Positions 3,371 through 62,706 of a stretch of DNA of 64,000 nt are shown here, piece after piece. The stretch is from a phage. The stretch's first letter is position 1, and every line of letters begins with the position of its first letter. The stretch lies in sequence record PZ402305.1; one strand, written 5' to 3'. The position numbers were made by a program, and so were the translations under genes. The notes under the pieces are model-generated. The model worked only from the letters and a program-made list of their open reading frames with translations, was not told the DNA's origin and did not search any database.

Positions 3371-3427
3371 ACTTTAAGCAGGGGGCGGTAACGCCCTATT
3401 AAACGCAATAGGAAGAGGATAGAAAGC

Positions 3428-3718
3428 ATGAAAAAGATGATCGCAGTAGTTGCCCTGGTTGTTGGTATTAACGCGCCTGTAATGGCTAATGATTTGCCTG
3501 AATCCATCGCGTTAACCGATATCAACGCGGTAAACCGGATCGGCGTTAATTATCGCCTATGCCTTGCCGCTAAAACTTTCCAGGACGGCACGACAGAATA
3601 CCACGGATTCGAGGGTGTCCGGTGCGGTGAGCTTGCACGCGACCTTAAGGAAGATCCAGACCTTGAGGCCATACCGATGACCGTAAACGGTAAAGCTTAC
3701 GTAAACCGCCAACAATGA
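3428..3718 (+). CDS. hypothetical secreted protein (signal peptide)
   Basis: N-terminus MKKMIAVVALVVGINAPVMA resembles a Sec signal peptide. Confidence 0.5.
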   Translation: MKKMIAVVALVVGINAPVMANDLPESIALTDINAVNRIGVNYRLCLAAKTFQDGTTEYHGFEGVRCGELARDLKEDPDLEAIPMTVNGKAYVNRQQ

Positions 3719-3729
3719 GAAAGGTAATC

Positions 3730-3957
3730 ATGACAATGGGGATCATAGTAGCAACGCTGGCGCTGATCCCCTTCCTGGTTGAATATGTGCTGATTAGTGT
3801 TGTCCTGGTAGTCAGTGACTTATTGGAAACGGTTGGCACCTGGGAGCAGGGGAAGATAATCACCGGACGACCCCGCTATATATTGATAGCTAACATCTAT
3901 CAAACAACAAAACATCAAAGAGATAAACTATCAAATCTTTACAATCCTACCTATTGA
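3730..3957 (+). CDS. hypothetical membrane protein (75 aa)
   Basis: Internal ATG after GAAAGG RBS; two hydrophobic segments. Confidence 0.45.
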   Translation: MTMGIIVATLALIPFLVEYVLISVVLVVSDLLETVGTWEQGKIITGRPRYILIANIYQTTKHQRDKLSNLYNPTY

Positions 3958-4012
3958 CACCGGATCACGCTTACATTATCATTTATCACGTAGGGCGGGA
4001 ATGTTTCCCGCC
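3954..4012 (+). promoter_or_regulatory. PeSL-like cassette 7: TTGACA-N16-TTATCA plus GTAGGGCGGGAAtgtTTCCCGCC
   Basis: Precedes ATG at 4031. Confidence 0.5.
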
Positions 4013-4030
4013 TGATTTAGGAGTCATATC

Positions 4031-4264
4031 ATGATCGAACAAATTAAAAGCACTAAACCAAATGTTAACGGTAATGTTTCTCACTTTATCGGGGATAATG
4101 AAAGAGGTACACCGTACGCCGCCGTAACCGTTCAACCGAACGGGGATTATTGGTTTACCGTGTACGGATCTTACTCTTTTGGACGTTCGGCACATGATAA
4201 GATCTTGCAAGTGGTTAAGCCTACTGGGAAGAATATCACAGCAGAAAAATTTTATAAAAAATAA
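4031..4264 (+). CDS. hypothetical protein (77 aa)
   Basis: Track ORF. Confidence 0.5.
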   Translation: MIEQIKSTKPNVNGNVSHFIGDNERGTPYAAVTVQPNGDYWFTVYGSYSFGRSAHDKILQVVKPTGKNITAEKFYKK

Positions 4265-4265
4265 C

Positions 4266-4325
4266 TTGCTTTATAGCTCCTGTTAACTTATAGTTATTGC
4301 GTAGGGCGAGCAATACAGCAAGCCC
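4266..4325 (+). promoter_or_regulatory. PeSL-like cassette 8: TTGCTT-N17-TATAGT plus GTAGGGCG leader
   Basis: -35 region reads TTGCTTTA (MotA-box-like); conserved GTAGGGCG follows -10; precedes ATG at 4343. Confidence 0.45.
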
Positions 4326-4342
4326 ACAAAGAGGAAAAGAAG

Positions 4343-4711
4343 ATGAGCAAATCAGCAATTAAAGCACTTGAAAAAGCACAAGAAGTGATCGCAACGTCAA
4401 CCACTGGCGCAAAGGTTAATCTCGTTGGTTATCTGACAGATGAAACTATCCGTAAAAATTGGCGTAATGCTGATTTACTGGCTTGCTTATTGATTAATAG
4501 TGTCGCTAATGCTTTCCAGTGTGAAACAGCCGAGAGCCTGGAGGAAAACTTGTTTGATAATATGGATCAAGCCATTGAAACCTATATACAATCAAACATG
4601 GATAGCTGGAACAGTAAAACATGGCCCGACAATTTACGCGATACAACTGATCAACTGATCCGCCTTGCCTTGATGGTTGAACGCGATAACGTTCACAACC
4701 GCACAAAGTAA
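4343..4711 (+). CDS. hypothetical protein (122 aa)
   Basis: Track ORF with AAGAGGAAAAG RBS. Confidence 0.5.
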   Translation: MSKSAIKALEKAQEVIATSTTGAKVNLVGYLTDETIRKNWRNADLLACLLINSVANAFQCETAESLEENLFDNMDQAIETYIQSNMDSWNSKTWPDNLRDTTDQLIRLALMVERDNVHNRTK

Positions 4712-4721
4712 GATTATACAA

Positions 4722-4748
4722 GGGGCGCACCAAGCGCCCTTTCTTTTT
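4722..4748 (+). terminator. rho-independent terminator
   Basis: GGGCGC-accaa-GCGCCC stem-loop followed by TTTCTTTTT. Confidence 0.7.
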
Positions 4749-4749
4749 G

Positions 4750-6360
4750 CCCGAATAATGTTGATAGATTCCGCCTATGGAAAACCGACACAGAACAAAA
4801 CTGAATAAATAGCGGTATCGAGCTAATCAACCATTAAACGAATAACCATACCTCCCAGGGTAACAGGCTGTTAGAGAGCCATTTAGAGCGGTTAAAATCG
4901 ATCAACAACCAACAAAAAACCATCAAAAACACCCTTTTACCTCCTTTCTAGTGCAATGATAACCATTATCATCTATCCATGTTTATCTATGCAATATAAG
5001 TGCATAACTATAATGTTGATAATAGTTCGCAACAACTAACTAACCAACAACCTAAAACAATAAGCAAACTAATCATAATCAAAGGAATAATAGCAAGATG
5101 ATTGATAACGACAAACAATCAAACCATGATGAATACTAAGCAAGATAACGATAACACGACAAAACAACCAACTAACGAACAATAACAAACGAAACCATTA
5201 AAATAATAACTATTAGCAAAATAGTGCCTGAATGAAATCATTACAAAACGAATCATTCACAGGATCATCATTAGCACGCTATGCCGGACACATAGCGAGC
5301 TAATAATAAGCCAACTACACCCCAACAATCATAACCATCGGTGATGGTTATTTCTTGTTACTGCGTAGCTTGCAATAATTGCAAGCGTAATACGCTTACA
5401 CTTATTGCGCTGGCTTATTATTAGCATTATATGTAATTACCAAGATCATAACATTAGCGCAATAACAATAATCATTGTGGTAATTACAAGATGAAATAAT
5501 CGCTATCGCTCAAAGATCATTAGCAAGATGAATAATTGCACGTAGCAACATGAGCGAATAGCGACAGGTTGCATAGTGTGCACATAGATGTACACGTAGT
5601 GTATAAACATACAGGAAAATAAAGGCTAATCTTTTGGGGGCGAATACTATCGCGTAGCGATATGTTGAGCACTAAGAGAAGAGATAAACCTTAATCATGG
5701 GGGCGTAAATATCCGCAGGATTGCCAACGGCGATCCGGTAGGATGTTGAGCATCTTCTCTTAAACGTAAATAAAATCAGAAAATTCTTGATTTATTTTAG
5801 TTTTTATGTTAATAAACGTTTAAATAATAATCATTCTCATATGAATAATAGTCTGCTTGTCATGAGCGGGATCAGTTGACAATGTTCCGTCATATGATGA
5901 AGTTGCCAAACCATTGATAAATAAGTGTTTGTGTGATTTATAATCAAGTGGCCCACCTTGTCGCTATGTTGGCATGAGCCTTGCATAAGTCATTGAATAC
6001 GAATGATAATTATTCTCATTCGCATGATATTTGAGAATTGTCGCTGCGTGGACCTGACGGCCCGAAAATTCGCGTTAAGCACTTCTTACGTATGCGCCAT
6101 GATTTTTGCCATATGATATTGATTCTATTAGATATTCTTGCCATGATTGCCATGAAACAGGGTGTCCCGAAATAATCTCTCCCCGTAGATATTTTGGGTT
6201 ACTTTTTATACAAGAGTGGGGTGTCAAAAATAATCGGTATATATGGGATAATTGATAGGAATCCCCTATGATAATTCGATTGTAATTCCCTGAGATTGAT
6301 CGTATGATGTTGGTGATTGATGATTGCCATGAAAGATGGCTAACAATGAGAGGAGATTAT
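4750..6360. other. 1.6 kb ORF-free, repeat-bearing non-coding region
   Basis: No ORF of 60 aa or more on either strand; C+A-rich top strand at 4750-5550; short direct and inverted repeats at 5600-6340. Confidence 0.5.
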
Positions 6361-6361
6361 C

Positions 6362-6706
6362 ATGCAAGAGAGTAAAAATGTTCCGTTGAGTAGTTTACGT
6401 CTAATGAAGTTTTACAAAGCTTGGCTTGCTGGTGAGGTAGAAGGTCACACAACGAGTGGTTTGTGCATATGTTTGATTAAGTATGTAGAGGGAACATATC
6501 CTGATGAACTGTTACCTCGTCTACAACAGGAGATGAAATCACAGTTTATTGGTGCAGGACTGGATTACAATTTCCCGTTTAATGAAGGTGGTTATGAGGA
6601 ATACACCTTCGAACATAAAAAACATATTTGCCATAAAAACAAACATCGTATACAATGGGTGCTAGATAGAATTCAAGATTACGAAGGAGAGAAAAATGAC
6701 AAATAG
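6362..6706 (+). CDS. small Cys-containing protein, paralogous family member 1
   Basis: GAGGAG RBS; shares FYKAWL..GLCxCL..AGLDYNxPFN..RxQWVxDRI motifs with five other ORFs. Confidence 0.6.
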   Translation: MQESKNVPLSSLRLMKFYKAWLAGEVEGHTTSGLCICLIKYVEGTYPDELLPRLQQEMKSQFIGAGLDYNFPFNEGGYEEYTFEHKKHICHKNKHRIQWVLDRIQDYEGEKNDK

Positions 6707-7064
6707 TATTCCGTTGAGCAGTGCAACATTGCTTCGCTTCTATAAAGCATGGATTGCCAACTATCCTGCAATGAATCGCACAACGAGTGGCTTATGTGGT
6801 TGTCTGGTAGATTATGTAAATGATTTTGTTGGTGAGACAACCAGAGAAGAAGATAGAAGATGGCGGGATAGTTTGTTGGACCGTTTGAAATATGAAATGA
6901 GGAAACAATTTACATGTGCAGGGCTGGACTACAATCTTCCGTTCAATACAGATTGCATGGATTACCTTTCAGAGTGTATAAACTTGGCGTGTCATACCAA
7001 CACGTTACGTCTTCAATGGGTGAAAGACAGAATTGAAGATGCAAATAATGCTTGCATTGAATAA
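6696..7064 (+). CDS. small Cys-containing protein, paralogous family member 2
   Basis: Tandem to member 1; LLRFYKAWI, SGLCGCL, AGLDYNLPFN, LQWVKDRIED. Confidence 0.6.
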   Translation: MTNSIPLSSATLLRFYKAWIANYPAMNRTTSGLCGCLVDYVNDFVGETTREEDRRWRDSLLDRLKYEMRKQFTCAGLDYNLPFNTDCMDYLSECINLACHTNTLRLQWVKDRIEDANNACIE

Positions 7065-7795
7065 AGATGTTTGTATAATGGATGACATAACAGATAGCCA
7101 ATGAGGAGATTGAAATGTCAAATATGAAAACTGTATCCTTGTATTTAGCTAACACGGATCGTGTGCACACCCTTGCTAATGCAAGTCGTGTACTCGTGCA
7201 GTTCCGAAACTTTGCACCGTCCGTTGTGACAGGCAGTGAAACGTGTGTTATCGATTTCATTAACGAATACTTCCGAGGGAATCCGGTTGGTCGTTATTTC
7301 ATTAAGGGTCTGAAGGATGCATAATATGAAACGCATGAAAATTCGTATTGAGAATGATGGTGGTTATAAAGGATTGGCACATGCAAAATTTCCACTTGTG
7401 CTGGAAGCTACGGTGGAATACAGTGGGCTTGCTCATGTGCGATTCTCGAAGATGATGGAAGTGCAGGAATGGTTTTGGGACGAGATAGATGCACGAGAAG
7501 GGGAAGATTATGTTTTCTTTCCTCACGAATATGAAATTGTTTATTAAAGGTTGTGTGCAATGATCACACCACAACAGAATGAAGCAGCAATGGATCTTCT
7601 TGACAGTTTGTATTTCGATAATTGGTACTCTGAATGTGAATGGATGAATATGCAAACTCTGAAAGAGAAGACAAAAGCGTTGATTACAGTAGATCAATTT
7701 CTTACAGAGACGGAAAGAATGAATTATGATATGGCATCTCGCGCACGACGCGTTTCCATTTTCAATAAAATGTTAGCATTATGGGGAGGTAGAAA

Positions 7796-38768: not shown

Positions 38769-39761
38769 TTAAATTTTCTCACTCCACCATTGAGGGTTGT
38801 TTAAGTACCATTCAATCGTTGAGTAGAGATCTTGTTCAAATGTAGAGTTTGCACTCCAACCCAGTTCAGACTCTATTTTAGAAGGATTGATTTCATAACG
38901 CAAGTCATGTCCTTTACGATCTTCAACAAAAGTTATCAAGTTGGAAGAAGGGTAGGTTCCTGCCTCTGGATGTACAGCATCCATGTAGTCACAAACCATA
39001 TAGATGATCTCCATATTGGTTTTGGGATTACGTGTTCCAACATTATACGTTTGACCTGGTTCTCCACCTGTTGCCACTTGAAGAATAGCTCGCGCATGAT
39101 CCTCAACAAAAAGCCAGTCTCGCACCTGATCGCCTTTACCATACACCGGAATCTCTTTATTCGTCAAGATACTTGTGATGATTTTTGGGATCAGCTTTTC
39201 TGGATGTTGATAAGGCCCAAAGTTATTGGAGCAGTTGGTTATCACAACAGGCAAATCGTAGGTACGGTGCCAAGCTTTCACAAGATGGTCAGATGCTGCC
39301 TTAGACGCGCTGTACGGGCTTGAAGGGGCATAAGCTGTCTCTTCAGTAAAGGGAACGCCAGAGTCTGCCATATCGCCGTACACTTCGTCTGTGGAGACGT
39401 GTACGAACATCTTCAGTTTATTTTTTGGGAGGAGCCTTGCAGCTTCCAATAAATTGTATGTACCAATAATATTGGAGTCGATGAAAACTCGTGGATTCTT
39501 GATAGAATTATCCACATGACTTTCTGCCGCTAAGTGAATGATGAAGTCAGGATTGCACTCTACTACTAAACTTTTGACCTGGGTTTCGTTTGCCAAATCT
39601 GTTATGCTTAGTTTAACGTGAGTGATATCGCCTACATTCTCAATGTCTGCTGCATAGCCCATCTTATCAACGACAAAAACTTCGTTATTGGGATCTTGAC
39701 AAAGAGAGCGCACCACGGCACTCCCAATAAAACCAAGACCACCTGTTACCAGATAGCGCAT
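38769..39761 (-). CDS. rmlB: dTDP-glucose 4,6-dehydratase
   Basis: [15 protein letters not shown] and SDR YxxxK-type core; 330 aa. Confidence 0.9.
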
Positions 39762-39770
39762 CAGTTCTCC

Positions 39771-40097
39771 TTACCAAACATGTTGAGAAATAATAGTTTC
39801 CGTTTTAATGTTATATTTTTCAAGTAGCTTTGCATAGGCTTCTTTTGCATTCTCATTCAATTGCTCAAGATCTACAGCTATGCTTCCTTCTCCGCCTTCT
39901 AAATCAAGGCCATATATGCAATAAGACTCATCCGCATCGTAGAAAGGAGAGATGCGGCTTAAGTCAAGACCTTCTTGTAAGAACCAGTTAAAATCTCCGT
40001 CAAATTCTTCTTCAATTCTAGGATCTTCTCCTACAGCCTCTTCCCACTTATTAAAAGGTGCACCCTGTAACATACGCCATTCGATATCAATACCCAT
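39771..40097 (-). CDS. hypothetical acidic protein (108 aa)
   Basis: Track ORF. Confidence 0.45.
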   Translation of the reverse strand: MGIDIEWRMLQGAPFNKWEEAVGEDPRIEEEFDGDFNWFLQEGLDLSRISPFYDADESYCIYGLDLEGGEGSIAVDLEQLNENAKEAYAKLLEKYNIKTETIISQHVW

Positions 40098-40601
40098 TTT
40101 TCATCTCCTCCTCTTCTTGAGCAGCTTTAATAATTGCTTCATAAATATCGTAAGCAATGCCTCCACAACATCTAGCTTCGAAAGCTATTGCTTCTGCAAT
40201 GTGATCTGTTAATTCTCGTGGAATGCGAACATACTCTTTTTCACTCTCCATCTTCTACCTCCAACCCTTCTTTTTCAAAGATTACTACTCGTCCTTCACC
40301 ATGACAATTCAGGCAAGGAAATGTTACCATAATTTCCACTTCCATCTGTCCAGTCCCACCGCACACAGGACAAAAAATAAGTTTTTCAGCCATTATTCCT
40401 CCTTAATTATTTCAAACTTGGCAACACCATTTACAATAATATGACCACAAGACATAACTCCTAGCCAAGGATCGCCGTTTTTCTTCGGGCGTTTACCGAA
40501 TACATCACAAAAACCATTCTTCATTTCGGAGGCTTCATAAGAAGCCTCTTTGTCAAAAACGTCTTTGAATGTGTCGATTATACCAACACATCTCAAAATC
40601 A

Positions 40602-41687
40602 TTAGAAGTCAAGCTCCTCATCATCAGAGAGATCTTTGTTAGCTGAATTCAATTTGTAATTAGTTAACTGAATCTCTTGGGCTGCTGACTGAATCAAATC
40701 AGGATTCAACCATTTTTCCATCCAAGCTAAAGGACTATGTTTAGGTGCTTTAAACTTGGCTTTCATTTTCAATCGACGATAAATAGGAGCAGCATTGAAA
40801 TAAACCCACTGTTTAGACAATTCGGCGTTAAGACCTACAATAAAACGACCTTCACTAAACAGGTAGTCACACCACTGTTCCTCTTGTTCAACAACAGTGT
40901 CGAGGATCAAAGTCAACTCTTCAATATTATCTTCGTAAATTTTACGCCAAATTGGGTCATGCATCAATGCATCAATTACAGCATAGTCCATCTTAACATG
41001 CAAGATTTCATCTAGCATAATTTTCTGGATCAGTTTACAAGCCCCAACAAACAGTTGTTGTTCTGCCATAGCAAAAGTAGCAGAGAAGGAAGATATAAAC
41101 TGAATACCTTCTAATCCAATCAGGGCTACCATCCCTTTAAGAATCAGCAAGCGAAGTTCATCGTTAGCTTCAATCAATCCTAGAGCATACTTATGACCAG
41201 CTTCTTCCAACTGACCCATGATATCAGCAATGATACCCATACGATTGAAAATTTTATCATTAATCATAATCTGATTGATGACTTCAATTGGATCTGGAGT
41301 ACATTGGCGGATTATTTCAGAATACGTTAACGCATGGAGAACTTCCATTTCACTCTGCTTCATCATCATAGCACAGGCTTCATTGTTACTCAAGAATGGA
41401 GAGAACAAAGTGATGATTGATTTTGCAAGAGAATCATTTTCCCATTGGAACGATAAGTTTTTAATCATAACATCATAGTTGTTTTTAGAACAAGCTACGA
41501 AATCTTTACGTGTCTGATCCAGATTAACTTCGTTTTCATCCCAATCTTGTGCTTTTTGAAGTTTGTAGAGTTTGTGCATTTCTGGATAAGTTACGTTAAC
41601 AGAATCAAAGATCCCTAATTGCTCCCCCAAAAATACTGGATATTTTCCTGTTTTGTAAACTTCATTGTGTAAATTAATTGCTGCCAT
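40602..41687 (-). CDS. nrdB: ribonucleotide reductase small subunit (class Ia beta)
   Basis: 361 aa; di-iron ligand-type E..H motifs; C-terminal ...DDEELDF tail. Confidence 0.85.
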   Translation of the reverse strand: MAAINLHNEVYKTGKYPVFLGEQLGIFDSVNVTYPEMHKLYKLQKAQDWDENEVNLDQTRKDFVACSKNNYDVMIKNLSFQWENDSLAKSIITLFSPFLSNNEACAMMMKQSEMEVLHALTYSEIIRQCTPDPIEVINQIMINDKIFNRMGIIADIMGQLEEAGHKYALGLIEANDELRLLILKGMVALIGLEGIQFISSFSATFAMAEQQLFVGACKLIQKIMLDEILHVKMDYAVIDALMHDPIWRKIYEDNIEELTLILDTVVEQEEQWCDYLFSEGRFIVGLNAELSKQWVYFNAAPIYRRLKMKAKFKAPKHSPLAWMEKWLNPDLIQSAAQEIQLTNYKLNSANKDLSDDEELDF

Positions 41688-41702
41688 TTAAAATTCTCCT
41701 CA

Positions 41703-41725
41703 ATAAAAAGGGGCCGAAGCCCCTA
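41703..41725 (-). terminator. terminator-like UUCG hairpin between nrdA and nrdB
   Basis: GGGGC-UUCG-GCCCC followed by TTTTTATT that overlaps the nrdB RBS region. Confidence 0.5.
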
Positions 41726-41731
41726 GTTTCA

Positions 41732-43972
41732 TCACATCTTGCAAGCTTCACAACCACCATCAGAATCTTCTTGTGCTAAAGAATCTGCTGATTTTGTTCT
41801 ACTGTTAAGGTAATACAATGACTTACCACCCAGTCTAGCAAAGTTCAAAATAAATTTCATCTCTTCTTTAACTGATAAACGTCCCCCTACCAATTTAGAA
41901 TAATCTAACCAAGAATCACAAGAAATTCCTTGGTCCGTAAACTTGGTAAAGATACCATACATTTCTGCAAGATCTTTAGCCGGAGTATCCCATGCAGACT
42001 GGTAAAACATTTTCAGTTTTTCGTAGTCTGGAACAATAAATAATACACTACCTTTCTGACTTTGTTTATACATAATAGTATCACGAACAGGATACAGAGA
42101 GTTAGTAGTATTGCTTACCAAACTGCTGGACTCATTAGGTGCAATAGCAGCCAAGACACTGTTACGGATACCACCTTGTTCAATGATTTCAGCACGTAAG
42201 CCTTCCCAATCCATTTTAAGATCAAAATTACCGATACTATCTACTGTTTTAGCATAAGTGTCAATTGGTAGCCAACCTTGAGGCCATTTGGTCTTATCGA
42301 TCCATTCCGCATTACCTTTTTCCTTAGCCAGACGCAGAGAGGCTTTTGCCAACCAAAAGTAATGACGTTCTGCAAGTTCATGCATTAATTTTTTAGCATA
42401 AGCATCTGAATAATTTACAAAATTACTTGCCAAATAATGCGCTAAGTTTGTAATGCCTACACCAATAGATCTACGTGCTTTAGCAGTTATTTCGTTATGT
42501 TTAAATGGATAATCCATTGTTTCAATAACGTTGTCAATTGTCAATACAGTGTAGTATGCAACATCCTCATATTCTTCAGGTAAGACACGACCAGCAACAA
42601 TAGAAGATAAGAAGCATAAAGCCAATTCTTGATCTTCTGTGTTCTCACCAGTAAAGAGATCCGGCATACTGTGGAAAGCTTTAGTTGGTAAGAAGATCTC
42701 TTGACACAGGTTTGATTGATACACCGTATCCAGGAAAGGTGTATGGTTGTTAACGTTGTCAGCAAAGAACATGTAAATACGTCCTGTTTCTGCACGTTGA
42801 ACAATAATCTCTGTCAGAAGATCACGAGCCTTAACAAATTTTTTCTTAATGCGACGACGGCTTACTTTGTCATAAACTGCATCAAACTCTTCTTCACTTT
42901 TATACAAAGCTTCATAAAGTTCTGGAGCATCATCACAACTAACTAACATCCAATCTTCGTTTTTTGCTGCTCGACGCAAGAACGAACGGTTAACAACAAT
43001 AGAATAATCCAGTTTGTCTACTCGTTTATCTATAGGTGTTGTTGGATTCTTCAGTCGAATCAGATCGTCGAAGTCTGGTTCAAGTATGGTAAAGGTAACT
43101 GTAGCACTACCTCCACGGCTTGCTTGCTTCGAAGCTCCAACACTATCTTCCATCCATTTCAGATATGGAAGAAGACCACCATGAATAATACGATTATTCT
43201 TAACACCTTGACCTGTGGCGCGAGTTTGAAGATTAACACCAATACCTGCGTTATTCAACGTATACTCATGAGCTAAGTAATTAGCAATGGCTAAAGACTC
43301 TGCCGTATCGTCTGCACGGAACAAACAACAAGACGCACTTCCTTTGATTGGAGTTCGTAGAGTTGTCAGATACGGCGATGGCAGATTAATCTTAAGATCG
43401 CTAACATAAGTATAAAGTTTTTTAATATCTTCTATACGGCGTTCTTTTGGTTGGATCTCCATAACCTTCATTGCGATACCAATAAAAAGAAACTGTGGAG
43501 ACTCATGCACCACATCGTTTACTGCATCTCGAATAAGATATTTATCTACCATCTGACGTAAAACAGAATAACCATAAGTTAGATTTTTATTATGCTTTAC
43601 AATCTTACCGATTTCTTTGATCTCTTCATCAGTATAATCCATTTTAGCCCAATGTCCACGTTCTACCATATCATGATAAAAGGTATTCAGTGAAGGGATA
43701 CTGTGGTATCCCCCATGAGCCTGTTTGTAAATCATACCCAGAAGAAGTCTTCCTGCCATATCACTGTAAGCTTGTGTTTTCTTGTCAATACACGCTGCAA
43801 TCATTGCTTTATGCAGATCACGTGTAGACACACCGTCATAACACCGCTTCACAGCTTCTAATTCAATTTCAGACCAGTTTAGTTTACCTGCTGCAAATTC
43901 AGACCACTTGCGAAGTTTTTCTGGATTAAACTCCTCTGTCTTACCGTTAGATTTAGTTACAAAACGAATCAA
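41732..43972 (-). CDS. nrdA: ribonucleotide reductase large subunit (class Ia alpha)
   Basis: 746 aa; N-terminal ATP-cone, SNLCQEI active-site motif, C-terminal Cys pair. Confidence 0.9.
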   Translation of the reverse strand: MIRFVTKSNGKTEEFNPEKLRKWSEFAAGKLNWSEIELEAVKRCYDGVSTRDLHKAMIAACIDKKTQAYSDMAGRLLLGMIYKQAHGGYHSIPSLNTFYHDMVERGHWAKMDYTDEEIKEIGKIVKHNKNLTYGYSVLRQMVDKYLIRDAVNDVVHESPQFLFIGIAMKVMEIQPKERRIEDIKKLYTYVSDLKINLPSPYLTTLRTPIKGSASCCLFRADDTAESLAIANYLAHEYTLNNAGIGVNLQTRATGQGVKNNRIIHGGLLPYLKWMEDSVGASKQASRGGSATVTFTILEPDFDDLIRLKNPTTPIDKRVDKLDYSIVVNRSFLRRAAKNEDWMLVSCDDAPELYEALYKSEEEFDAVYDKVSRRRIKKKFVKARDLLTEIIVQRAETGRIYMFFADNVNNHTPFLDTVYQSNLCQEIFLPTKAFHSMPDLFTGENTEDQELALCFLSSIVAGRVLPEEYEDVAYYTVLTIDNVIETMDYPFKHNEITAKARRSIGVGITNLAHYLASNFVNYSDAYAKKLMHELAERHYFWLAKASLRLAKEKGNAEWIDKTKWPQGWLPIDTYAKTVDSIGNFDLKMDWEGLRAEIIEQGGIRNSVLAAIAPNESSSLVSNTTNSLYPVRDTIMYKQSQKGSVLFIVPDYEKLKMFYQSAWDTPAKDLAEMYGIFTKFTDQGISCDSWLDYSKLVGGRLSVKEEMKFILNFARLGGKSLYYLNSRTKSADSLAQEDSDGGCEACKM

Positions 43973-44239
43973 CTTCTCCTCCCTATTATTAATGCATATT
44001 CAAAACATCTACATCATAACCGAACTTCATTTCATTAAAAAGTCCATTAGCATATAGAAAACCTTCAAAATGAGTTATGTCATCAAACCCTTTTGCTTTT
44101 GCTCGGCGGTCTGCTTCTTGTCTTTTAGGAGATAAACGTTTTGAAGTGTCTAGAATTACAGTTACATTACAACCAACAGTTTCATCAAAATAGACTTCGA
44201 TTTCACAGCCTTCATATTTATTATCAGTCATTGTCCCTC

Positions 44240-44683
44240 TCATTGATTAGTATCATCTGCTTTCGCAGGATCATAAGAGTTACCGAAATCATCCATCTTA
44301 ATATGTGACGCACCCCAACCTGTAAATTCTTCATCACCAAAATGAAAAATATCATTTTCTTGATAGATTCGTTTAAAACCACAATTAGGTGAAACAGGGA
44401 AAGTGAAAAGCGTTGTATTTGCAAACACTACTCGCTTATCGTTATTGCTTCTGATATTCACATTACGCTCAACAGAATAGTGTGAATCTTCAGCCATACC
44501 CAGCATTACAAGCGACGCTCTAATAACAGCATTTTGTTTCTCGTGTGGGATATTGCCATTGTGTTTATTTGATTCTAGTTTCCAGATAGGGGTAGACATT
44601 ACAGTAGACATGCTTACGGTAGCCCAAGTTGTAGTATTTACTAATGACATATTTTCTCCTTCGTTTTGAATGGGAGGACTCAC
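44240..44683 (-). CDS. hypothetical protein (147 aa)
   Basis: Track ORF between nrdA and ThyX-like gene. Confidence 0.4.
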   Translation of the reverse strand: MSPPIQNEGENMSLVNTTTWATVSMSTVMSTPIWKLESNKHNGNIPHEKQNAVIRASLVMLGMAEDSHYSVERNVNIRSNNDKRVVFANTTLFTFPVSPNCGFKRIYQENDIFHFGDEEFTGWGASHIKMDDFGNSYDPAKADDTNQ

Positions 44684-44748
44684 CTCCTCCCAGTATTGTG
44701 CTATATTATACTAAAACTAATACTAAAGTCAATAACTATTTAAACAGA

Positions 44749-45747
44749 TCACCATTTAGTATGATTTGTTAAAAGTTGACGATGTTGAATCCAGCCTTTG
44801 AAATTACCAGACCAAAACTTACCATTACGATCTACATGGGTAATACCTGGTTCCCAAGAGTTAAAATCCCAAGGAGCATTGATAAACAAATCTTCAAAAC
44901 AGTTCTCTCCGTATTGTTCGCATGTTTCTTGAATTGGAGTGGCTTGATGTTCAAACGGAGAAGCATGAACCTTGCGCCCAGTCAGCAAGCGACCATAGAT
45001 ATCTAAAGCTTTATCTTTAGTTGCATTTAAACGACGATAGCTAACCTGTGCACAACACGAAGCTGAAATAGCTTTGGCTTCTTCCAAAGTAAGCACAACA
45101 ACTTCTCCAGATTCATCTTGAACGTAGTATCCACCAAAAACAAAATGATCGTCACCTTCTGTGCCAATAGTATCATAGAAATGGTCTACATAAGGTGTGT
45201 GCCATTGCCCTGGTTTCAGCACTTCTGGTGTAGATCCTTCATACTCTTTGTGCATCTCTTTAGCCAAAGCTTCGATAGTAGGATCGGCTTCTTTGTCATC
45301 ACGTAGCCACCAGAAATTTTCATATTCTGTTGCTGTCAGAACTGTTTTAATTCGTTGGAAAGGTTCCAGAAGACGGTTTGCAACTTGTTTGTGGTACCCT
45401 GCCAAAGAGAATTCTTCTGCAAAACGTGCTGCACTAAGCGCGGCAAGATCCCACCACTCTTGAGCAGTATAACCTGCATCAATAAGAGCGTCATGATCAA
45501 CACCTTTATCCTGCATACCAGGTTGGTTAGCCCCAAAACGATAAGGACGAGCAGGTTGATTTCGCACCATTTCAATCAGTGTTTTAACAGGTATAGCACG
45601 GCTAGAAGCAGCATTACGACTAAACAGGCGGTGAGTCATCAATTCTGAATGAATAATACGTGGATATTCTAGTTCAAAAGTTACAATCTCTTTTCCGTCT
45701 TCAGTGATGGAATGCGCAATAATACTAGCCGAAATCTGTTTTGTCAT
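44749..45747 (-). CDS. ThyX-like protein (flavin-dependent thymidylate synthase family, variant motif)
   Basis: THRLFSRNAASSR fits RHR-x7-S-x-R with R to T; HASPFEH motif near C-terminus; 332 aa is longer than typical ThyX. Confidence 0.5.
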   Translation of the reverse strand: MTKQISASIIAHSITEDGKEIVTFELEYPRIIHSELMTHRLFSRNAASSRAIPVKTLIEMVRNQPARPYRFGANQPGMQDKGVDHDALIDAGYTAQEWWDLAALSAARFAEEFSLAGYHKQVANRLLEPFQRIKTVLTATEYENFWWLRDDKEADPTIEALAKEMHKEYEGSTPEVLKPGQWHTPYVDHFYDTIGTEGDDHFVFGGYYVQDESGEVVVLTLEEAKAISASCCAQVSYRRLNATKDKALDIYGRLLTGRKVHASPFEHQATPIQETCEQYGENCFEDLFINAPWDFNSWEPGITHVDRNGKFWSGNFKGWIQHRQLLTNHTKW

Positions 45748-52204: not shown

Positions 52205-53332
52205 TTATTCTGCTGGTTCCCAAGTGCCTGGGATCATTTCTCGAATACGAACACCAACAGGTTTTGTTGGAATACCTTCATCTGAAAATTCTTCATACTC
52301 TATTTCAACGAACTGATTAATCAAGGTAGAAGCATTCTCTGCTTTACGATAATTGATAGTCTCATGAGCATCTTTACGCATTAAGAATTCGACTACTTTA
52401 CCATTTTCCATCTCACCTGTCAACACTCCATCGCCATTTTTATCACTTTTTGAATTTATTACTTTAACTTCAAGCGTATGACGAGGCTTACGTTTAATAA
52501 CATCATAAGAACGTTTATCAAATTCGTAAACTCCGTGAGCATTACGATATACTACACCTTCAGCTTTCTCAAGTAAAGCTTTTTCATAGAAAGCATCAAA
52601 CTGTTCTTGGTTTTGAATATACTCTGTATGAACTACACAAATAAGCTCATCAAGACCATAATCCTCCACTACTGCCTTAAGAGCAGTAAGAACATCAACA
52701 CGTTTTTCAAACGGTAGGTCTGGAACTGGAATATCGTATACGTAATAGTTCAGCAAAGGTGTATTTGCATTATGCTTCTTCCAGGCACTGTTAATTTGTT
52801 GTAGACTAAGGACACCTAACCCAGCAAACACTTCACCATCAAGAGGATGACCAACAACTTCACTAATAAAGTTTGGAATACCTTTCCAATGAGGTGGCAG
52901 GTTATACACTTCCCCAGCTTTTGATAAACACTCCCCTTTCATGTTAATCATAGAACGTAACCCGTTCAGTTTGTATTGTGCATAGCCAGGGAACACAACC
53001 CTTTCAGGATAATCTTTATAATCCTGGCATTTCATTGGTGTAGAAGGAACATGGTTTTCAGCTTCTTCTTTTGTTTTATAATAGCCATTCTTTAACTGTT
53101 TTGTCCATTTGGCAAAAGCTTCAAGTTCAGCTTGTTCTTCTGGTGTTGTTTCATTGGAACGACCGATGTTTTTTGCTTCTGCTGTATAAGATTTTTCTGT
53201 GATTTTTCCACCTACCCTTCCATGAGCTACAGTAACAACTGCACCATCTGTATACACTGTCCACTGTTTAAGTTTTCCTTTTGAATCTTTACCATACAGC
53301 GTTTGATTTGTTTGTTGCATTAGTCCTCCCAT
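52205..53332 (-). CDS. ATP-dependent DNA ligase
   Basis: FPGYAQYKLNGLRS (motif I, compare T4 gp30 FPAFAQLKADGAR), LDGEVF, EGVVYRN, VIKRK. Confidence 0.7.
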   Translation of the reverse strand: MGGLMQQTNQTLYGKDSKGKLKQWTVYTDGAVVTVAHGRVGGKITEKSYTAEAKNIGRSNETTPEEQAELEAFAKWTKQLKNGYYKTKEEAENHVPSTPMKCQDYKDYPERVVFPGYAQYKLNGLRSMINMKGECLSKAGEVYNLPPHWKGIPNFISEVVGHPLDGEVFAGLGVLSLQQINSAWKKHNANTPLLNYYVYDIPVPDLPFEKRVDVLTALKAVVEDYGLDELICVVHTEYIQNQEQFDAFYEKALLEKAEGVVYRNAHGVYEFDKRSYDVIKRKPRHTLEVKVINSKSDKNGDGVLTGEMENGKVVEFLMRKDAHETINYRKAENASTLINQFVEIEYEEFSDEGIPTKPVGVRIREMIPGTWEPAE

Positions 53333-54058
53333 TTAAAAACTGAAATTTTCAATCTGTTACACACTTCATCCAAATCGGCGTCGAGTAACGTTGTAGATGT
53401 TGCCAACATATAATCAATGCTTGTGAAACCTTGCCCTTTGGCATAGTCAAACATATCTTCATACATATCTTCAAGATCACCGTCATCAAAAGTAGCTAGA
53501 AAATCCTCGTCCCCACTACGAACATAAAATGCAGTACTCATTCATCTTCATCCCAAGATTCAAAAACGCAGCAATCATCGGTTTCTATAATACCAACACG
53601 TCCGCAGGTATTGCAAGTGATTTTATCACCGTAGAATAAATAATTTTTATCACCCTCTGTGTTTACAGTTATGTCATTACTACCACAAGGGCAAGTCAGC
53701 CAACCAACAACAACGATATCTTTTTTCATAATCCATCCTTAATGAGTTCGTAAATCTCTTCCTGAAGAGCATCGATCTCTTCCTCCAAACGAGAGATCTC
53801 TTCTTTTAGATATACCATTTCGGATTCTTTCTCTTCTAACTCATTTTCAAATTTTACTTTATTCGCCTCATTTTCATAATGGAGTTCAGCGTAATCATCG
53901 CGCATTTGTTCAATAAGATGAATCAGAGACAAGATGTAATTATCTCCCGTTTCATCACGCCACTCTTCACCGTGGCGGAGAACGGTAATTCGTCCAGTAT
54001 CTTCATCTAAAATTGTCTCATATTTACGATCATCTGTATAAATCTGCATTATTTCTCC

Positions 54059-54463
54059 TTATTGAAGTTTAAGTGAACCACGAAGACGCTTCTCTTGCTG
54101 ATCACGAATATATTGTGGAACCTCGTGAATTGAATCATTACCGTGCCTATTTTCAACAACTAAAGAGATAACTTGATAACCAAACTCTTCAGCAAGAGTT
54201 AAATAAGGTTTAAGTTCTTTCTCTGTGGTTGAAGTGTTAGAAACAATAATCTTGTTAAGATTAGATGCCATAGCATCACGAACAATACTCTGACACCATG
54301 CGTGTGCTTTACCTACATTTTCTGGCTTCCAATCGTAAACACCACTTTCTGTGTAATGATATTGATCTGCCTCACAGATAGGCCAATAACCTTCAGAAAT
54401 AATTTCTGCTACCGTAGATTTACCAGCACCTGAAACGCCACGTAAAATGATAAGTTGTTTCAT
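54059..54463 (-). CDS. P-loop kinase (polynucleotide kinase-like)
   Basis: LIILRGVSGAGKSTVAEII Walker A; 134 aa, kinase domain only. Confidence 0.6.
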   Translation of the reverse strand: MKQLIILRGVSGAGKSTVAEIISEGYWPICEADQYHYTESGVYDWKPENVGKAHAWCQSIVRDAMASNLNKIIVSNTSTTEKELKPYLTLAEEFGYQVISLVVENRHGNDSIHEVPQYIRDQQEKRLRGSLKLQ

Positions 54464-55396
54464 TTATCCTCCAAAGAAGTTTTCGATTTTTTCACGTCGC
54501 TCTTGCTGATTTAAAGCAGCCCATTGAGTCTTCGTAAAGTTATTTCGAATCCATTCTAACAAAGCGTAATATTCTTCGTCAACAATTTGTTTGGCATTTT
54601 GTGGATTATCCCAAATCAGATCCCACTTTTTATCTCCACCGCGCATAAGAAACTTCTTAGTAAGATAGTGTGGTGATTTAATTTTTAAAAGTAAGTTGAA
54701 CGGATAGTTTGTTTCACGAACTACAAACCCTTCGTGTTTACAATGTTTAGACATTTCAACAACATCTGAAAACTTAACCATTGGATGAACTTCAGGACGC
54801 TTAAATTTGGTGACAGAAGCAATTCCATCAAGAGCACCTTCAGGTAACATAAAACTTGTCCCGTCAGGATTTTGAATTCTGGCACCAATTAAGTATGCAC
54901 CTGGTTCTTCTTCGACAATATGCGGATCAGAAGGATCACAGATTTCAAAAAGGAAAGTTGCTTTTGCACTCTCTGTCCATTTGATGAAATGTTCTATGTC
55001 ATCGCACTCTGAAACAATACGATTCTTTGCAATACTTGCAAAATCTGATTCAAGGCTTCCTGTTGTCGATACGATAAGTTGACCTTTATATACACCTACA
55101 GAGGCCATAAAACCATTTACTTTACGAACAACATCTACAAATTCATCCGCTGGTAGATCTGTGCCATTCTCAAAACGATTAAAAATCTTAGTGAAAGGCC
55201 AAATAACAACATTGTCATCAGCGTCAACAACGATTCCGCGACATTCTAGAAGACGAGAATCAATGTTCCATAGGTTATCCCAGAAAACTTTGTTCTTATA
55301 CTTAAGAACAGATAGACCAGAATACTCTCCTTCTTTATATGTTTTCTTATGAACTAAACCTTTTTCAACTAAATCGTCGCAATTAAATTTAGCCAC
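54464..55396 (-). CDS. rnlA: RNA ligase, Rnl1 (T4 RnlA) family
   Basis: RLLECRGIVVD and VRKVNGFMASV match T4 Rnl1 LPDALECRGIMFE and ILTKEDGSLVSTY. Confidence 0.75.
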   Translation of the reverse strand: MAKFNCDDLVEKGLVHKKTYKEGEYSGLSVLKYKNKVFWDNLWNIDSRLLECRGIVVDADDNVVIWPFTKIFNRFENGTDLPADEFVDVVRKVNGFMASVGVYKGQLIVSTTGSLESDFASIAKNRIVSECDDIEHFIKWTESAKATFLFEICDPSDPHIVEEEPGAYLIGARIQNPDGTSFMLPEGALDGIASVTKFKRPEVHPMVKFSDVVEMSKHCKHEGFVVRETNYPFNLLLKIKSPHYLTKKFLMRGGDKKWDLIWDNPQNAKQIVDEEYYALLEWIRNNFTKTQWAALNQQERREKIENFFGG

Positions 55397-60574: not shown

Positions 60575-60646
60575 TGGCCCTGTAGCTCAATGGGAGAGCT
60601 GTCGGCTCATAACCGATAGGTAGCTGGATCGAAACCAGCCAGGGCC
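60575..60646 (+). tRNA. tRNA with CAT anticodon, tRNA-Ile2 (lysidine)-like
   Basis: Acceptor GGCCCTG/CAGGGCC, loop CTCATAA, encoded CCA; resembles bacterial tRNA-Ile2. Confidence 0.7.
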
Positions 60647-60651
60647 ACCAA

Positions 60652-60723
60652 CGTCTTTATGGTGTAATGGATAGCACAGGAGTCTTCTAAACTCTTAGTC
60701 AAGGTTCGATTCCTTGTAAAGAC
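60652..60723 (+). tRNA. tRNA-Arg (TCT)
   Basis: Acceptor GTCTTTA/TAAAGAC, loop CTTCTAA, T-loop TTCGATT, CCA. Confidence 0.7.
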
Positions 60724-60775
60724 ACCAGAACATTTTAACATGAATTAGCTCAAGTGATTTGAACCCACTACTGAT

Positions 60776-60896
60776 CATGGTGGCAGAGAATGAGGCAAGT
60801 ATGTCAGACATTATAAACAAAGGCCACGGTTATATTAGAAGACATAAATGCTCGAAGAGCACCGTTCGTGGAGAACGGGGGTTGGTGGAGTCACCA
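60776..60896 (+). ncRNA. second candidate structured RNA (about 120 nt)
   Basis: ATGGTGGC at about 60776 pairs with GTCACCAT at about 60889; track ORF 60759..60950 here is probably spurious. Confidence 0.3.
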
Positions 60897-60961
60897 TTCA
60901 TGGTAAAATGTTTTAAAAAACTATTGACAACAAACCTTATTTTATGTTAGATTATAAGTAT

Positions 60962-61049
60962 GGAAGGGCAAATCGACGTGGCGACGAAAACGGTCTTGAA
61001 AACCGCCGAGCTTGAAAGAGCCTTGGGAGTTCGACTCTCCCTCCTTCCG
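60962..61049 (+). tRNA. tRNA-Ser (TGA), type II
   Basis: Acceptor GGAAGGG/TCCTTCC, loop CTTGAAA, long variable arm, T-arm GGGAG-TTCGACT-CTCCC, G73, CCA. Confidence 0.7.
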
Positions 61050-61056
61050 CCAGATT

Positions 61057-61139
61057 GGTAGATTGGTGAAATGGTAGCCACGACAGTTTGCTAAACTGTA
61101 GTCGGAAACGGCGTGTAGGTTCGAGTCCTACATCTACCG
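61057..61139 (+). tRNA. tRNA-Ser (GCT), type II
   Basis: Acceptor GGTAGAT/ATCTACC, loop TTGCTAA, long variable arm, G73, CCA. Confidence 0.75.
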
Positions 61140-61273
61140 CCAAGTTCTTTTTAATATAGCTTACTTTAATAGAGTAAACTTTCGGCAGATGGCCCCCCAC
61201 CATCTTACCGATAACTCATAGTTAGTGGTGTGAACACTGGCTATCTTAAAAAGAATTTAAATATTAGTATTTA

Positions 61274-61358
61274 GGTGAGTTAATTCCGTAGGGGTAGCGG
61301 GGCAGACTGTAAATCTGTTATCATTGCGATTCGGGTGGTTCGACTCCATCACTCACCA
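61274..61358 (+). tRNA. tRNA-Tyr (GTA), type II
   Basis: GGTGAGT...GCAGACTGTAAATCTGT...ACTCACCACCA; close to the bacterial tRNA-Tyr pattern. Confidence 0.8.
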
Positions 61359-61367
61359 CCAAATTAA

Positions 61368-61450
61368 GATGAGTTGGCTGAATGGTTTAAGCGGCGGACT
61401 GTTAATCCGTGTTCGAAAGAACGATATAGGTTCAAATCCTATACTCATCG
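61368..61450 (+). tRNA. type II (Ser-like, G73) tRNA whose canonical fold gives anticodon GTT (Asn)
   Basis: Acceptor GATGAGT/ACTCATC, 3-bp D-stem, loop CTGTTAA between GCGGA/TCCGT, GNRA-capped variable arm. Confidence 0.45.
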
Positions 61451-61532
61451 CCAGAATTATGGACTTGTAGAGTTAAGGTAAACCCCCAGTCGCCAAGAGG
61501 CTTCTGGAATTGCAGGTATCGAATCCTGCCGA

Positions 61533-61604
61533 GTCCCAGCTTTGCTCCTATAGTATAATGGCTATTACAACGGTTTTGTAATCCGTGGATCTCTGTTCGA
61601 TTCA
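61533..61604 (+). tRNA. tRNA-Thr (TGT)
   Basis: Acceptor GCTCCTA/TGGGAGC, loop TTTGTAA, T-arm CTCTG-TTCGATT-CAGAG, CCA. Confidence 0.7.
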
Positions 61605-61931
61605 GAGTGGGAGCACCAACACAACATTAAGGGCACTGTGATTGATCGTCGTATCCTGTGCACAAGGTCTGTTCGAAAGACAGTGTTCTTAGTATTGTGT
61701 TGATCACAAAAAGAGTCACCTGAAACTTGACCGGAGTAGGGTTGGATGGGGTAAAAGAAGAAGCGGCTCTCCCATCGACAGCAACGAAGAATAATATTTG
61801 ACTTTGGTTTTGTATTATTTTAAGTTAGCTTACCGAACGTAGGGCTAGTCACCCAAAGGGATACTCGTCACTGTCCCACTCAATAAAACTATTGACAACC
61901 AATAGTAAAGTGTAGTATAGTAAAGATGTAG

Positions 61932-62002
61932 GGCGTTCTTGGTGTAGCGGTAGCATTCCGTCCTTCCAAGTCGGCGGCACGAGTTCGATCCTCGTAGAAC
62001 GC
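61932..62002 (+). tRNA. tRNA-Gly (TCC)
   Basis: Acceptor GCGTTCT/AGAACGC, loop CTTCCAA, T-arm ACGAG-TTCGATC-CTCGT; D-arm weak. Confidence 0.55.
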
Positions 62003-62103
62003 TCCAAATTATTTAATAAAGGGTTGCCAGAAAACTTTCTCTTTTACTCATGGTTTTCTCCTTCTCTCACACCTCTTCTGGTTGCCCTTCATTAAATGAT
62101 TTA

Positions 62104-62176
62104 TTGGTTTGTAGTGTAGTTAGGTAGCACACGACACTTTGACTGTCGTAGGTTTGGTTCAAATCCAGACAGACCA
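62104..62176 (+). tRNA. tRNA-Gln (TTG)
   Basis: U1:A72 and G73 (Gln identity), stem CGACA/TGTCG with loop CTTTGAC, CCA. Confidence 0.7.
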
Positions 62177-62184
62177 GCCATATA

Positions 62185-62258
62185 ACGGAATTTAGCTCAG
62201 TTTGGTAGAGTGTACGCTTTGGGAGCGTATTGTCGCAGGTTCGAATCCTGCAATTCCG
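62185..62258 (+). tRNA. tRNA-Pro (TGG)
   Basis: Acceptor CGGAATT/AATTCCG, loop TTTGGGA, T-arm GCAGG-TTCGAAT-CCTGC, A73, CCA. Confidence 0.75.
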
Positions 62259-62267
62259 ACCAATTAA

Positions 62268-62338
62268 ATGTTTCGTAGTTCAATGGTAGAACCCACGACT
62301 GATAATCGTGAGACACAAGTTCGATTCTTGTCGAAACA
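62268..62338 (+). tRNA. tRNA-Ile (GAT)
   Basis: Stem CACGA/TCGTG with loop CTGATAA; T-arm ACAAG-TTCGATT-CTTGT; CCA. Confidence 0.65.
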
Positions 62339-62419
62339 ACCAGTTTCCCGTTAGACTTACAGGATAAGAGTTCCACAGCTTATTGTGATGCTGGTTCGAA
62401 TCCAGCACGGGATACCTAA

Positions 62420-62495
62420 TAGCGGGATAGAGGAGTCTGGTCGTCCTCGCCAGTTTCATATGCTGGAGATCATTGGTTCAAATCCAATTCCCGCC
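62420..62495 (+). tRNA. tRNA-Met (CAT), initiator or elongator undetermined
   Basis: D-stem GAGG/CCTC, stem CCAGT/GCTGG with loop TTCATAT, T-arm ATTGG-TTCAAAT-CCAAT, 1:72 mismatch, CCA. Confidence 0.5.
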
Positions 62496-62613
62496 TCCAA
62501 ATATCGCTTGCCAGCGGTATCTTTGAAGACCTTGCCTGGTTCCTTCTAAGATGGAGGGGTGCGACTCCTTAACGCACAATTATAATAAAGCATTTCAAAT
62601 TAACAGTATTTAT

Positions 62614-62637: not shown

Positions 62638-62706
62638 GCTATCTATTGAATAAAACTTGACTTATTATTTTTTATATGTTAAGATAAAGTTTAGGAGGAT
62701 TTTATT

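Follow-up and report, generated by a model that had tools for sequence, protein, structure and literature searches.

A gene-free region at the probable genome terminus of a phAPEC8-like phage: direct terminal repeat, boundary motif and associated sequence elements

The direct terminal repeat of the genus Phapecoctavirus has already been published. Phage Schickermooser has a terminal repeat of 328 bp (Korf et al., PMC6563267), BME3, a Justusliebigvirus, has one of 342 bp and had its packaging analysed with PhageTerm (PMC12210895), and a general statement on terminal repeats in the subfamily is made in PMC12695924. In their accessible parts, the Schickermooser and BME3 papers give the length of the repeat only, and mention no boundary motif, hairpin units, structured module or palindromes. 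Here, we consider the equivalent region in a 64,000-nucleotide stretch of phage DNA (record PZ402305.1; the whole stretch is referred to as the window), in which 1.6 kb at about positions 4750–6360 are devoid of open reading frames (ORFs). This gap is very probably the genome-terminus, or concatemer-junction, region of Phapecoctavirus. The core finding is thus an ordinary one. The boundary motif, hairpin units, structured module and Fur-like sites that accompany the repeat are not described in the accessible portions of the literature that we searched.

In phages T7 and T3, the concatemer junction carries a direct terminal repeat of 160 and 230 bp, respectively, with pacB to the left of the repeat and the host promoters A1–A3 inside the left end. 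According to the T7 model, the terminal repeat is duplicated by synthesis, which is primed from a hairpin. The window is similar in having a short, fixed repeat with non-coding, inverted-repeat DNA directly to its left and host-type promoter(s) directly to its right. It differs in that its phage is a myovirus without a phage RNA polymerase, and there is no sequence similarity. A further comparison is with the cos region of lambda (cosQ-cosN-cosB, with an IHF site): in both, terminase signals are perhaps combined with sites for host DNA-binding proteins in the region where ends are formed, but the ends in the window would be a terminal repeat rather than cohesive ends, and the candidate host factor is Fur, not IHF. 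A single match to the IHF consensus is present in the gap, at 5907.

The window represents a Phapecoctavirus (phAPEC8-like, Stephanstirmvirinae) genome. There is no ORF of 60 amino acids (aa) or more on either strand at 4712–6361, between flanking genes that end at 4711 and start at 6362; the longest is 50 aa, in agreement with a preliminary description of this DNA, which had noted 1.6 kb without such an ORF. When ORFs of at least 60 aa are counted, 4734–6361 (1628 nt) is the largest stretch of the 64 kb without ORF coverage, the second largest (61204–62706) being a tRNA cluster; a tRNA scan found no tRNA in the gap itself. The gap had also been placed between a PeSL array and a block of paralogs. 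This holds: the two genes to the right are paralogs, both matching phrog_2510, while the genes to the left carry promoter and stem-loop cassettes in the phAPEC8 annotation. No known function was found for the flanking proteins. By megablast, the gap matches 74 phage records at 94–99% identity, nearly all of them Phapecoctavirus. An equivalent 1.5–1.6 kb without an annotated gene is found in phAPEC8, PNJ1809-36, ASO2A, TSP7_1, UP17 and phiWec181, and ORF-free blocks are also present in Justusliebigvirus (1.77 kb), Klebsiella phage phi1_175008 (≈2 kb) and Citrobacter phage Tr1, with a comparable one in Av-05 (Vequintavirinae).

Three functions had been suggested for the gap: a replication origin, a packaging or terminal-repeat boundary, or a non-coding RNA locus. 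The second proved correct, since a direct terminal repeat maps within the gap:

5749–6077, no strand assigned: direct terminal repeat of 328–329 bp, with its right end at 6076 or 6077, based on record ends of relatives and the literature.

We assign 5749–6076/7 as the direct terminal repeat because the record ends of relatives coincide there and because of the published repeat sizes. In a BLAST search reaching distant relatives, many records stopped at one coordinate inside the query. At least 12 GenBank records of relatives, from different laboratories, start or end at the equivalent of window position 5749 or 6076/6077, within 1 nt of each other. The Schickermooser record, for example, starts at 5749 and ends at 6077, while those of Mt1B1_P17 and WPEC1 end at 6076. 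A search with 5749–6077 alone returned 65 records at 95–99% identity. The repeat occupies record positions 1–329 in Schickermooser, BI-EHEC, WPEC4, WPEC6, Ro121lw and three NWU phages, and lies at the very end of the record in Mt1B1_P17, WPEC1 and WPEC2; the WPEC6 record, too, ends at the right boundary. The 329-bp segment was found at both record ends in Schickermooser, Mt1B1_P17, BI-EHEC and WPEC1, 2, 4 and 6. The same sequence is therefore present at both ends of the virion DNA in relatives that are 95–99% identical within the repeat, which is a statement about these relatives and not about the window's own virion DNA.

These ends are not permuted but fixed at specific sequences, as seen from the 12 or more record ends, from the cut register in BME3 and from dw-ec (OL739525.1), in which a foreign, adapter-like sequence is fused straight after ..CGCGTTA. 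(The foreign tail of dw-ec is ≈156 nt long, at 3401–3556 of locus L009, past the right genome end, and looks like a barcode adapter from sequencing joined to a palindromic artefact.) In IMG/VR, a Justusliebigvirus contig terminates at ..TTTGTTG. The repeats of Schickermooser and BME3 are the same element as that in the window: Schickermooser has the same ends, and BME3 the same boundary motifs and cut register. The end of the BME3 record (PP239276.1) was left out of this comparison, as a rearranged duplicate with Ns; it repeats ≈790 nt of the other end, and its annotated "DTR-L" is 73 nt off the position of the repeat given by self-match. Thus, the virion DNA of the relatives is linear, running from the equivalent of 5749 to that of 6076/6077, with 328–329 bp duplicated at both ends. 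In the window assembly, both copies of the repeat are collapsed into one, and its phage would have the same ends as its close relatives.

Both boundaries of the repeat carry copies of one motif (the slash marks the cut):

5745–5758, plus strand: left boundary motif, GTTG/AGCATCTTCT; virion DNA starts at 5749, from record starts and the BME3 register.
6074–6087, plus strand: right boundary motif, GTT(A)/AGCACTTCTT, from record ends and the dw-ec fusion; conserved in all genera.

The left junction reads ..ATGTTG/AGCATCTTCTCTTAAACG and the right junction ..TTCGCGTT(A)/AGCACTTCTTACG. In BME3, the corresponding junctions are ..TTTGTTG/AGCCTAC.. and ..CGCGTT/AAGCACC.., with a register equal to that in the window at both sites. 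In all genera examined, the motif GTTR/AGCA marks both boundaries of the repeat, in direct orientation. Across the ten genomes examined, the two members of the GTTRAGCM pair are spaced 321–412 nt apart: 329 nt in the window and 344 nt in the phage inny, close to the 342-bp repeat of the related BME3. There is no GTTRAGCM pair in Av-05. From its position, the pair may mark where the packaging nuclease cuts to generate the left end and the right end. In such a scheme, the concatemer would contain a single copy of the repeat between the non-coding DNA of the right end (4743–5748) and the promoter region of the left end (6078–6361). Terminase would recognise GTTR/AGCA(Y)..TTCT, in the same orientation at both boundaries; a cut at the left copy of the motif would produce the left end and a cut at the right copy the right end, with the repeat being duplicated by DNA synthesis, as proposed for T7. 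We know of no description of direct copies of one motif at both repeat boundaries in T7.

Directly to the left of the repeat, alignment with relatives revealed a pair of repeated units:

5636–5753, plus strand: two tandem units (5636–5671 and 5699–5752), each consisting of GGGGGCG, a variable hairpin and ATGTTGAGCA.

Several of the repeats listed in the preliminary description are functional landmarks in this arrangement. ATGTTGAGCA, for which two copies had been reported, occurs at 5662 and 5743 and nowhere else in the 64-kb window, and is the left cut-site motif; GGGGGCG, also in two copies as reported (5636 and 5699), and the palindrome TATCGC-gta-GCGATA, at 5648, belong to the adjoining unit. 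The 81 nt at 5662–5742 constitute an extra unit that is missing in most relatives, which have between one and three units, judged by the 58–81 nt between motif copies. In the alignment, the sequence of the hairpin varies among units and phages (TATCGC/GCGATA, CCGCC/GGCGG, or longer), while its flanks are kept. After the first ATGTTGAGCA, the sequence reads CTAAGAGAAGAG, in which the first bases of the repeat recur in inverted form. A hairpin adjoining the repeat, kept in structure, recalls the hairpin-primed duplication in T7, and may serve as a lead. We suggest that the hairpin units could be accessory signals for end formation, in which structure is kept and sequence is not. The stretch between these units and the structured module described below is variable: 5572–5603 in the window consists of ≈2.8 tandem copies of CATAGTGTACA, and other sequence takes its place in TSP7_1 and UP17.

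To the right of the repeat, the first strong promoter-like sequence appears:

6147–6235, plus strand: first sigma-70-like promoter and associated boxes, comprising TTGCCA-18-AATAAT (6147–6176), GGGTGTC(n2-3)AAATAAT at 6160 and 6219, and TTGCCATGA repeats.

TTGCCA-18-AATAAT is the first strong sigma-70-like match after 3982, with none in 4750–6100, and overlaps both the TTGCCATGA repeats and the first GGGTGTC..AAATAAT box. A GGGGGTGTC box is conserved in most genera ≈85 nt to the right of the repeat. Early transcription of the left-end paralog block would begin at the 6147–6176 promoter, and we infer that the DNA to the right of the repeat is the early promoter region of the left end. The repeats in this part had been described less exactly. 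For GGGTGTCnnnAAATAATC, one exact copy stands at 6160, and the supposed second copy, GGGTGTC..AAATAATC at 6219, differs by a 2-nt spacer. GCCATGA, thought to occur about five times, has four copies (6096, 6140, 6149 and 6326), out of six in the window. GGGTGTC..AAATAAT was considered as a genome-wide phage promoter motif and rejected, as it occurs nowhere else in the window; T4-type late promoters (TATAAATA) were sought, and none was present in the gap.

The non-coding RNA suggested for the gap brings us to a structured element that lies further to the left:

5270–5425, minus strand: single-copy structured module with helices H1 (5270–5304), P1 (5305–5312 with 5412–5419), 5316–5320 with 5363–5367, H2 (5331–5351) and H3 (5368–5386).

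The module is a multi-helix element of ≈170 nt. The segment 5255–5440 folds much better than its shuffles, with a z score of the minimum free energy (MFE) of −6.6 on the plus strand and −7.2 on the minus strand. Homologues were collected from GenBank loci, and from IMG/VR and metagenomes by exact search for the invariant palindrome, yielding 21 distinct sequences; three metagenome loci (L026, L029 and L035) matched the H3 palindrome only, and were discarded as unrelated chance matches. In a plus-strand model with four helices, 93.7% of cells were paired and 12 of the 38 pairs were compensatory. The covariation score was 0.224, compared to 0.078 in shuffles, none of 500 reaching the observed value, and 0.025–0.043 in slid controls. 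The minus-strand fold has 43 pairs, 13 of them compensatory, with 98.3% of cells paired, and again none of 500 shuffles reached the observed value; however, this structure was predicted from the same alignment that scored it, and the changes represent few independent events. RNAalifold gave −32.6 kcal/mol for the plus strand versus −43.2 kcal/mol for the minus strand. Single substitutions produce A.C on the plus strand and G.U on the minus strand, and the helix formed by 5316–5320 and 5363–5367 is valid on the minus strand only, where it is so in 21/21 sequences. A covariance model found one copy of the module in the 64 kb and no homologue in Av-05. The suggestion of a non-coding RNA was thus borne out as far as a strongly covarying, structured element is concerned, but not by membership of a known family: a search of 3500–7500 on both strands with the Rfam 15 covariance models gave no match up to E = 1.

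The module is real and structural, and we moderately favour its acting through the minus strand, as RNA or single-stranded DNA. That it is a packaging or replication signal and that it is part of a minus-strand transcript are each given somewhat less than an even chance. As the former, the module may be an accessory signal for end formation, its structure kept and its sequence not. As the latter, the left part of the gap would be a non-coding RNA gene, transcribed from the minus strand with the module (5438 to 5253) at the 5' end, followed by the U/G-rich complement of the C+A-rich tract, and with a regulatory or antisense role; this would be compatible with a terminal repeat. The better pairing, the G.U substitutions, the strand-specific helix and the lower z score on the minus strand all speak for such a transcript. 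However, there is no convincing minus-strand promoter to the right of 5440 (the best match, 9/12, is within the repeat) and no terminator downstream on that strand, our literature search found no transcriptome for the subfamily, hairpins in single-stranded DNA also tolerate G.T pairs, and the lack of an Rfam family and the dependence of the structure on its own alignment count here as well. We therefore regard the RNA gene as possible but somewhat doubtful. Two interpretations of individual helices were tried and rejected. H2 has the stem and T-run of an intrinsic terminator in the window, but other genera have lost the T-run, and the helix covaries. Kissing between the invariant H1 loop (GCCGGACAC) and the GGGTGTC boxes showed no covariation, and Klebsiella phages change loop and box at non-matching positions.

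The leftmost part of the gap consists of a terminator and a tract of biased composition:

4720–4742, plus strand: intrinsic terminator closing the early-gene array, a 9-bp G+C-rich stem followed by TTTCTTTTT; annotated in phAPEC8, ASO2A and Schickermooser, and conserved to Av-05.
4750–5260, plus strand: C+A-rich, G-poor tract without significant secondary structure, containing an island at ≈4785–4830 conserved across genera.

The first ≈800 nt of the gap had been described as C+A-rich, and the A+C fraction over 4750–5550 is indeed 0.62. The most A+C-rich 800-nt stretches of the window all fall at 4451–5600 (median 0.5075, standard deviation 0.031), where the GC skew is negative. Within the tract, A+C is 0.61–0.71 per 100 nt, and the MFE z scores are −1.7 and +0.6 on the plus and minus strands, respectively. 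Identity is 93–99% within Phapecoctavirus and ≈60–70%, with conserved islands, to other genera, in which the A+C bias is much weaker. In phAPEC8, PNJ1809-36, Schickermooser, UP17 and phiWec181, an extra 139-aa gene and a second copy of the terminator are found between the 122-aa gene and the gap (4970–5423 in locus L001, 3153–3572 in L002); the window (4712–4742), ASO2A and TSP7_1 lack both.

The tract is the part whose function is least explained by our analysis. Most likely, it keeps early transcription out of the junction or is an unstructured spacer. Rather doubtful, in our opinion, is a plus-strand product or signal, either an unstructured RNA that ends at H2, for example an (ARN)n sponge binding Hfq, or a Rho-utilisation zone that stops read-through from the early array. 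The extreme A+C bias, with C exceeding G, the absence of structure and the terminator-like H2 followed by TTTCTTGTT in the window are consistent with this. So is Av-05, in which transcription converges on the equivalent gap: the left half is CA-rich, the right half is GT-rich and the genes run towards each other, which makes the sense strand CA-rich on either side; such a pattern would suit a Rho-loading zone. However, the plus strand has no promoter downstream of the terminator at 4742, other genera do not keep the T-run behind H2, which covaries as a structural helix, the A+C bias is much weaker outside Phapecoctavirus, and both the Hfq and the Rho interpretation derive from composition. The Av-05 gap (3490–5406 of locus L036; 1.9 kb) reaches an A+C fraction of 0.68 in its left half and falls to 0.29 in its right half. 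Two Fur-like boxes are present in it, as is a long hairpin of its own (GCGACACAATAACGC with GCGTTATTGTGTCGC). Av-05 thus resembles the window in its large ORF-free gap, which follows a homologous terminator and a conserved island, is CA-rich in its left half and contains Fur-like boxes; Av-05 differs in lacking the GTTRAGCM pair and the structured module, in its G+T-rich right half, and in having its right-hand genes on the other strand.

A repeat family, AATGATAAyCATTmTCAT, matches the Fur consensus, and the gap contains three conserved Fur-box-like palindromes:

4957–4971, no strand assigned: Fur-box-like palindrome 1, TGATAACCATTATCA, matching TGATAATnATTATCA at 13/14 positions, with an equivalent at the same relative position in most genera examined.
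5825–5839, no strand assigned: Fur-box-like palindrome 2, ≈76 nt into the repeat from its left end; in Justusliebigvirus, the site is a perfect TGATAATCATTATCA.
6004–6018, no strand assigned: Fur-box-like palindrome 3, ≈60–75 nt short of the right end of the repeat; in several genera, the site is an array of hexamers that overlap with a spacing of 6 bp.

Allowing two mismatches or fewer to TGATAATnATTATCA, there are five matches in the window, where 0.7 would be expected, and three of these are in the gap (4957, 5825 and 6004). With a 19-mer at a threshold of at least 14/19, the gap contains six matches, versus 0.28 in shuffles and nine in the other 62 kb, and gap palindromes are enriched ≈25-fold over the rest of the window. 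Most genera examined have one site in the CA-rich tract, a second ≈76–104 nt into the repeat from the left (172 nt in a single, longer repeat) and a third ≈60–75 nt before the right end; palindrome 3 lies within a BLAST island conserved across genera (5985–6035). Overlapping hexamers at 6-bp spacing are typical of Fur boxes (Chen et al. 2007, PMC2189734). Compared with the E. coli Fur box (the 19-bp GATAATGATAATCATTATC, or TGATAATnATTATCA in its 7-1-7 form; PMC2189734), the gap sites match at 12–13 of 14 positions and the Justusliebigvirus site at 14/14, and several genera have the 6-bp arrays. Unlike that box, two of the sites are inside the terminal repeat, and none is overlapped by a strong promoter. 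Weak promoter-like matches (9/12) overlap sites 1 and 3, both on the minus strand. Sites predicted from the consensus can also fail to bind Fur (PMC2189734). The probable ligand of the three palindromes is a dimeric protein. Among candidates, host Fur matches best, and a phage-encoded dimeric protein would be an equally simple alternative.

The same inventory of features bears on the remaining suggestions for the gap. An origin of DNA replication was not supported. The region is AT-rich, non-coding and full of hairpins, and its plus-strand composition flips locally from A+C-rich to G+T-rich near 5400–5450. The Vequintavirinae relative rV5 likewise has a "non-coding" block, drawn as a box on its genome map, and one of its several skew changes, which may or may not coincide with that box, is at nucleotide 6425 (PMC3606486). 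However, the rV5 authors tied skew changes to the direction of transcription (PMC3606486), and in the window the cumulative GC skew rises on both sides of the gap, without a global inflection. In the gap, a DnaA box was matched once with one mismatch and not at all with the relaxed consensus. There is no iteron family, and neither kind of element is clustered beside an AT-rich unwinding region; a search for Chi sites in the gap gave nothing of note. An origin at this location is accordingly improbable. A hidden gene was also sought, a conserved coding frame being what the preliminary description had named as evidence against its proposal, and none was found in the gap in relatives. The best candidate, a hydrophobic 32-aa minus-strand ORF (4834–4932) with a GTG start and a strong Shine-Dalgarno sequence (AAGGAGGT), was rejected, since TSP7_1, phiWec181 and other genera have it interrupted or lack it. 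The small ORFs annotated in the gap of WPEC1, PsgM04F, Tr1, FKP3 and ZYD differ from record to record.

The gap outside the repeat could also be largely functionless spacer, with repeats and palindromes that arose by chance in AT-rich DNA. Indeed, many short repeats with two copies do not exceed chance level, and the numbers of promoter-like and terminator-like sequences equal those in shuffles. However, the same islands occur in the same order across genera that have no detectable DNA similarity in the neighbouring gene, the covariation of the module exceeds all controls, and the palindromes are strongly enriched. Functionless spacer is already disfavoured on these grounds, and we consider it highly improbable.

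Several points weigh against the assignment of the gap as a genome terminus with the functions proposed here. The ends of the window's phage are taken from relatives that are 95–99% identical in the repeat, and it is possible that some GenBank records were re-opened to follow a reference and were not mapped independently. Recognition of the boundary motif by terminase is a proposal drawn from its position and conservation. The pairing in the module fits the minus strand better and is RNA-like, and a transcript fits at least as well as a DNA packaging signal. As for the C+A-rich tract, a strong intrinsic terminator is already present upstream of it, and conservation at 93–99% within the genus is beyond the needs of a mere spacer.

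Some further observations concern the records and the rest of the window. Records named as Campylobacter phage B15/C3, Acinetobacter phage ABPW7 and Pseudomonas phage PsgM04F are 83–96% identical in this region to coliphages of Phapecoctavirus or Justusliebigvirus; either these host labels are wrong or the host range may be unusually wide. In vB_EcoM_ZYD (PQ110661.1), filed as a Vequintavirus, a Justusliebigvirus-type terminus is joined to a Phapecoctavirus-like stretch (window 6186–6394, 91%), with the mosaic junction just to the right of the repeat. In phiWec181 and PsgM04F, identity shifts from ≈93% to ≈70–78% across the repeat. Elsewhere in the window (38769–45747, 52205–55396 and 60576–62499), the minus strand encodes both ribonucleotide reductase subunits, ThyX, a protein resembling a GDP-mannose 4,6-dehydratase or epimerase, and two ligases, an ATP-dependent DNA ligase and a T4-type RNA ligase. 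The tRNA cluster has 10 genes on the plus strand.

The boundary motif, hairpin units, covarying module and Fur-like sites make this region a worthwhile, testable target. In the module, we have a clean candidate for a new structured element, whether of RNA or of DNA. The strongest version, in which the terminus region encodes an undescribed, subfamily-wide structured minus-strand RNA (5438 to 5253) and the repeat carries genuine Fur operators, is unlikely. If it is true, either host Fur-Fe binds the phage DNA ends, or hundreds of replicated copies titrate Fur and de-repress host iron uptake, and such titration would feed the iron-dependent ribonucleotide reductase of the phage (40602–43972). 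Fur-like operators in the repeat of a lytic phage, if real, would link its DNA ends or replication to the iron status of the host, for which we found no description in the literature searched. In practical terms, most GenBank records of the genus were opened arbitrarily, with these 1.6 kb left blank. Once the true ends are known, the genomes can be opened and annotated correctly, and the boundary motif predicts the repeat in any Stephanstirmvirinae genome from its sequence alone. These phages are broad-host-range therapeutic candidates, and their packaging signals therefore matter for engineering and for assessing the risk of transduction.

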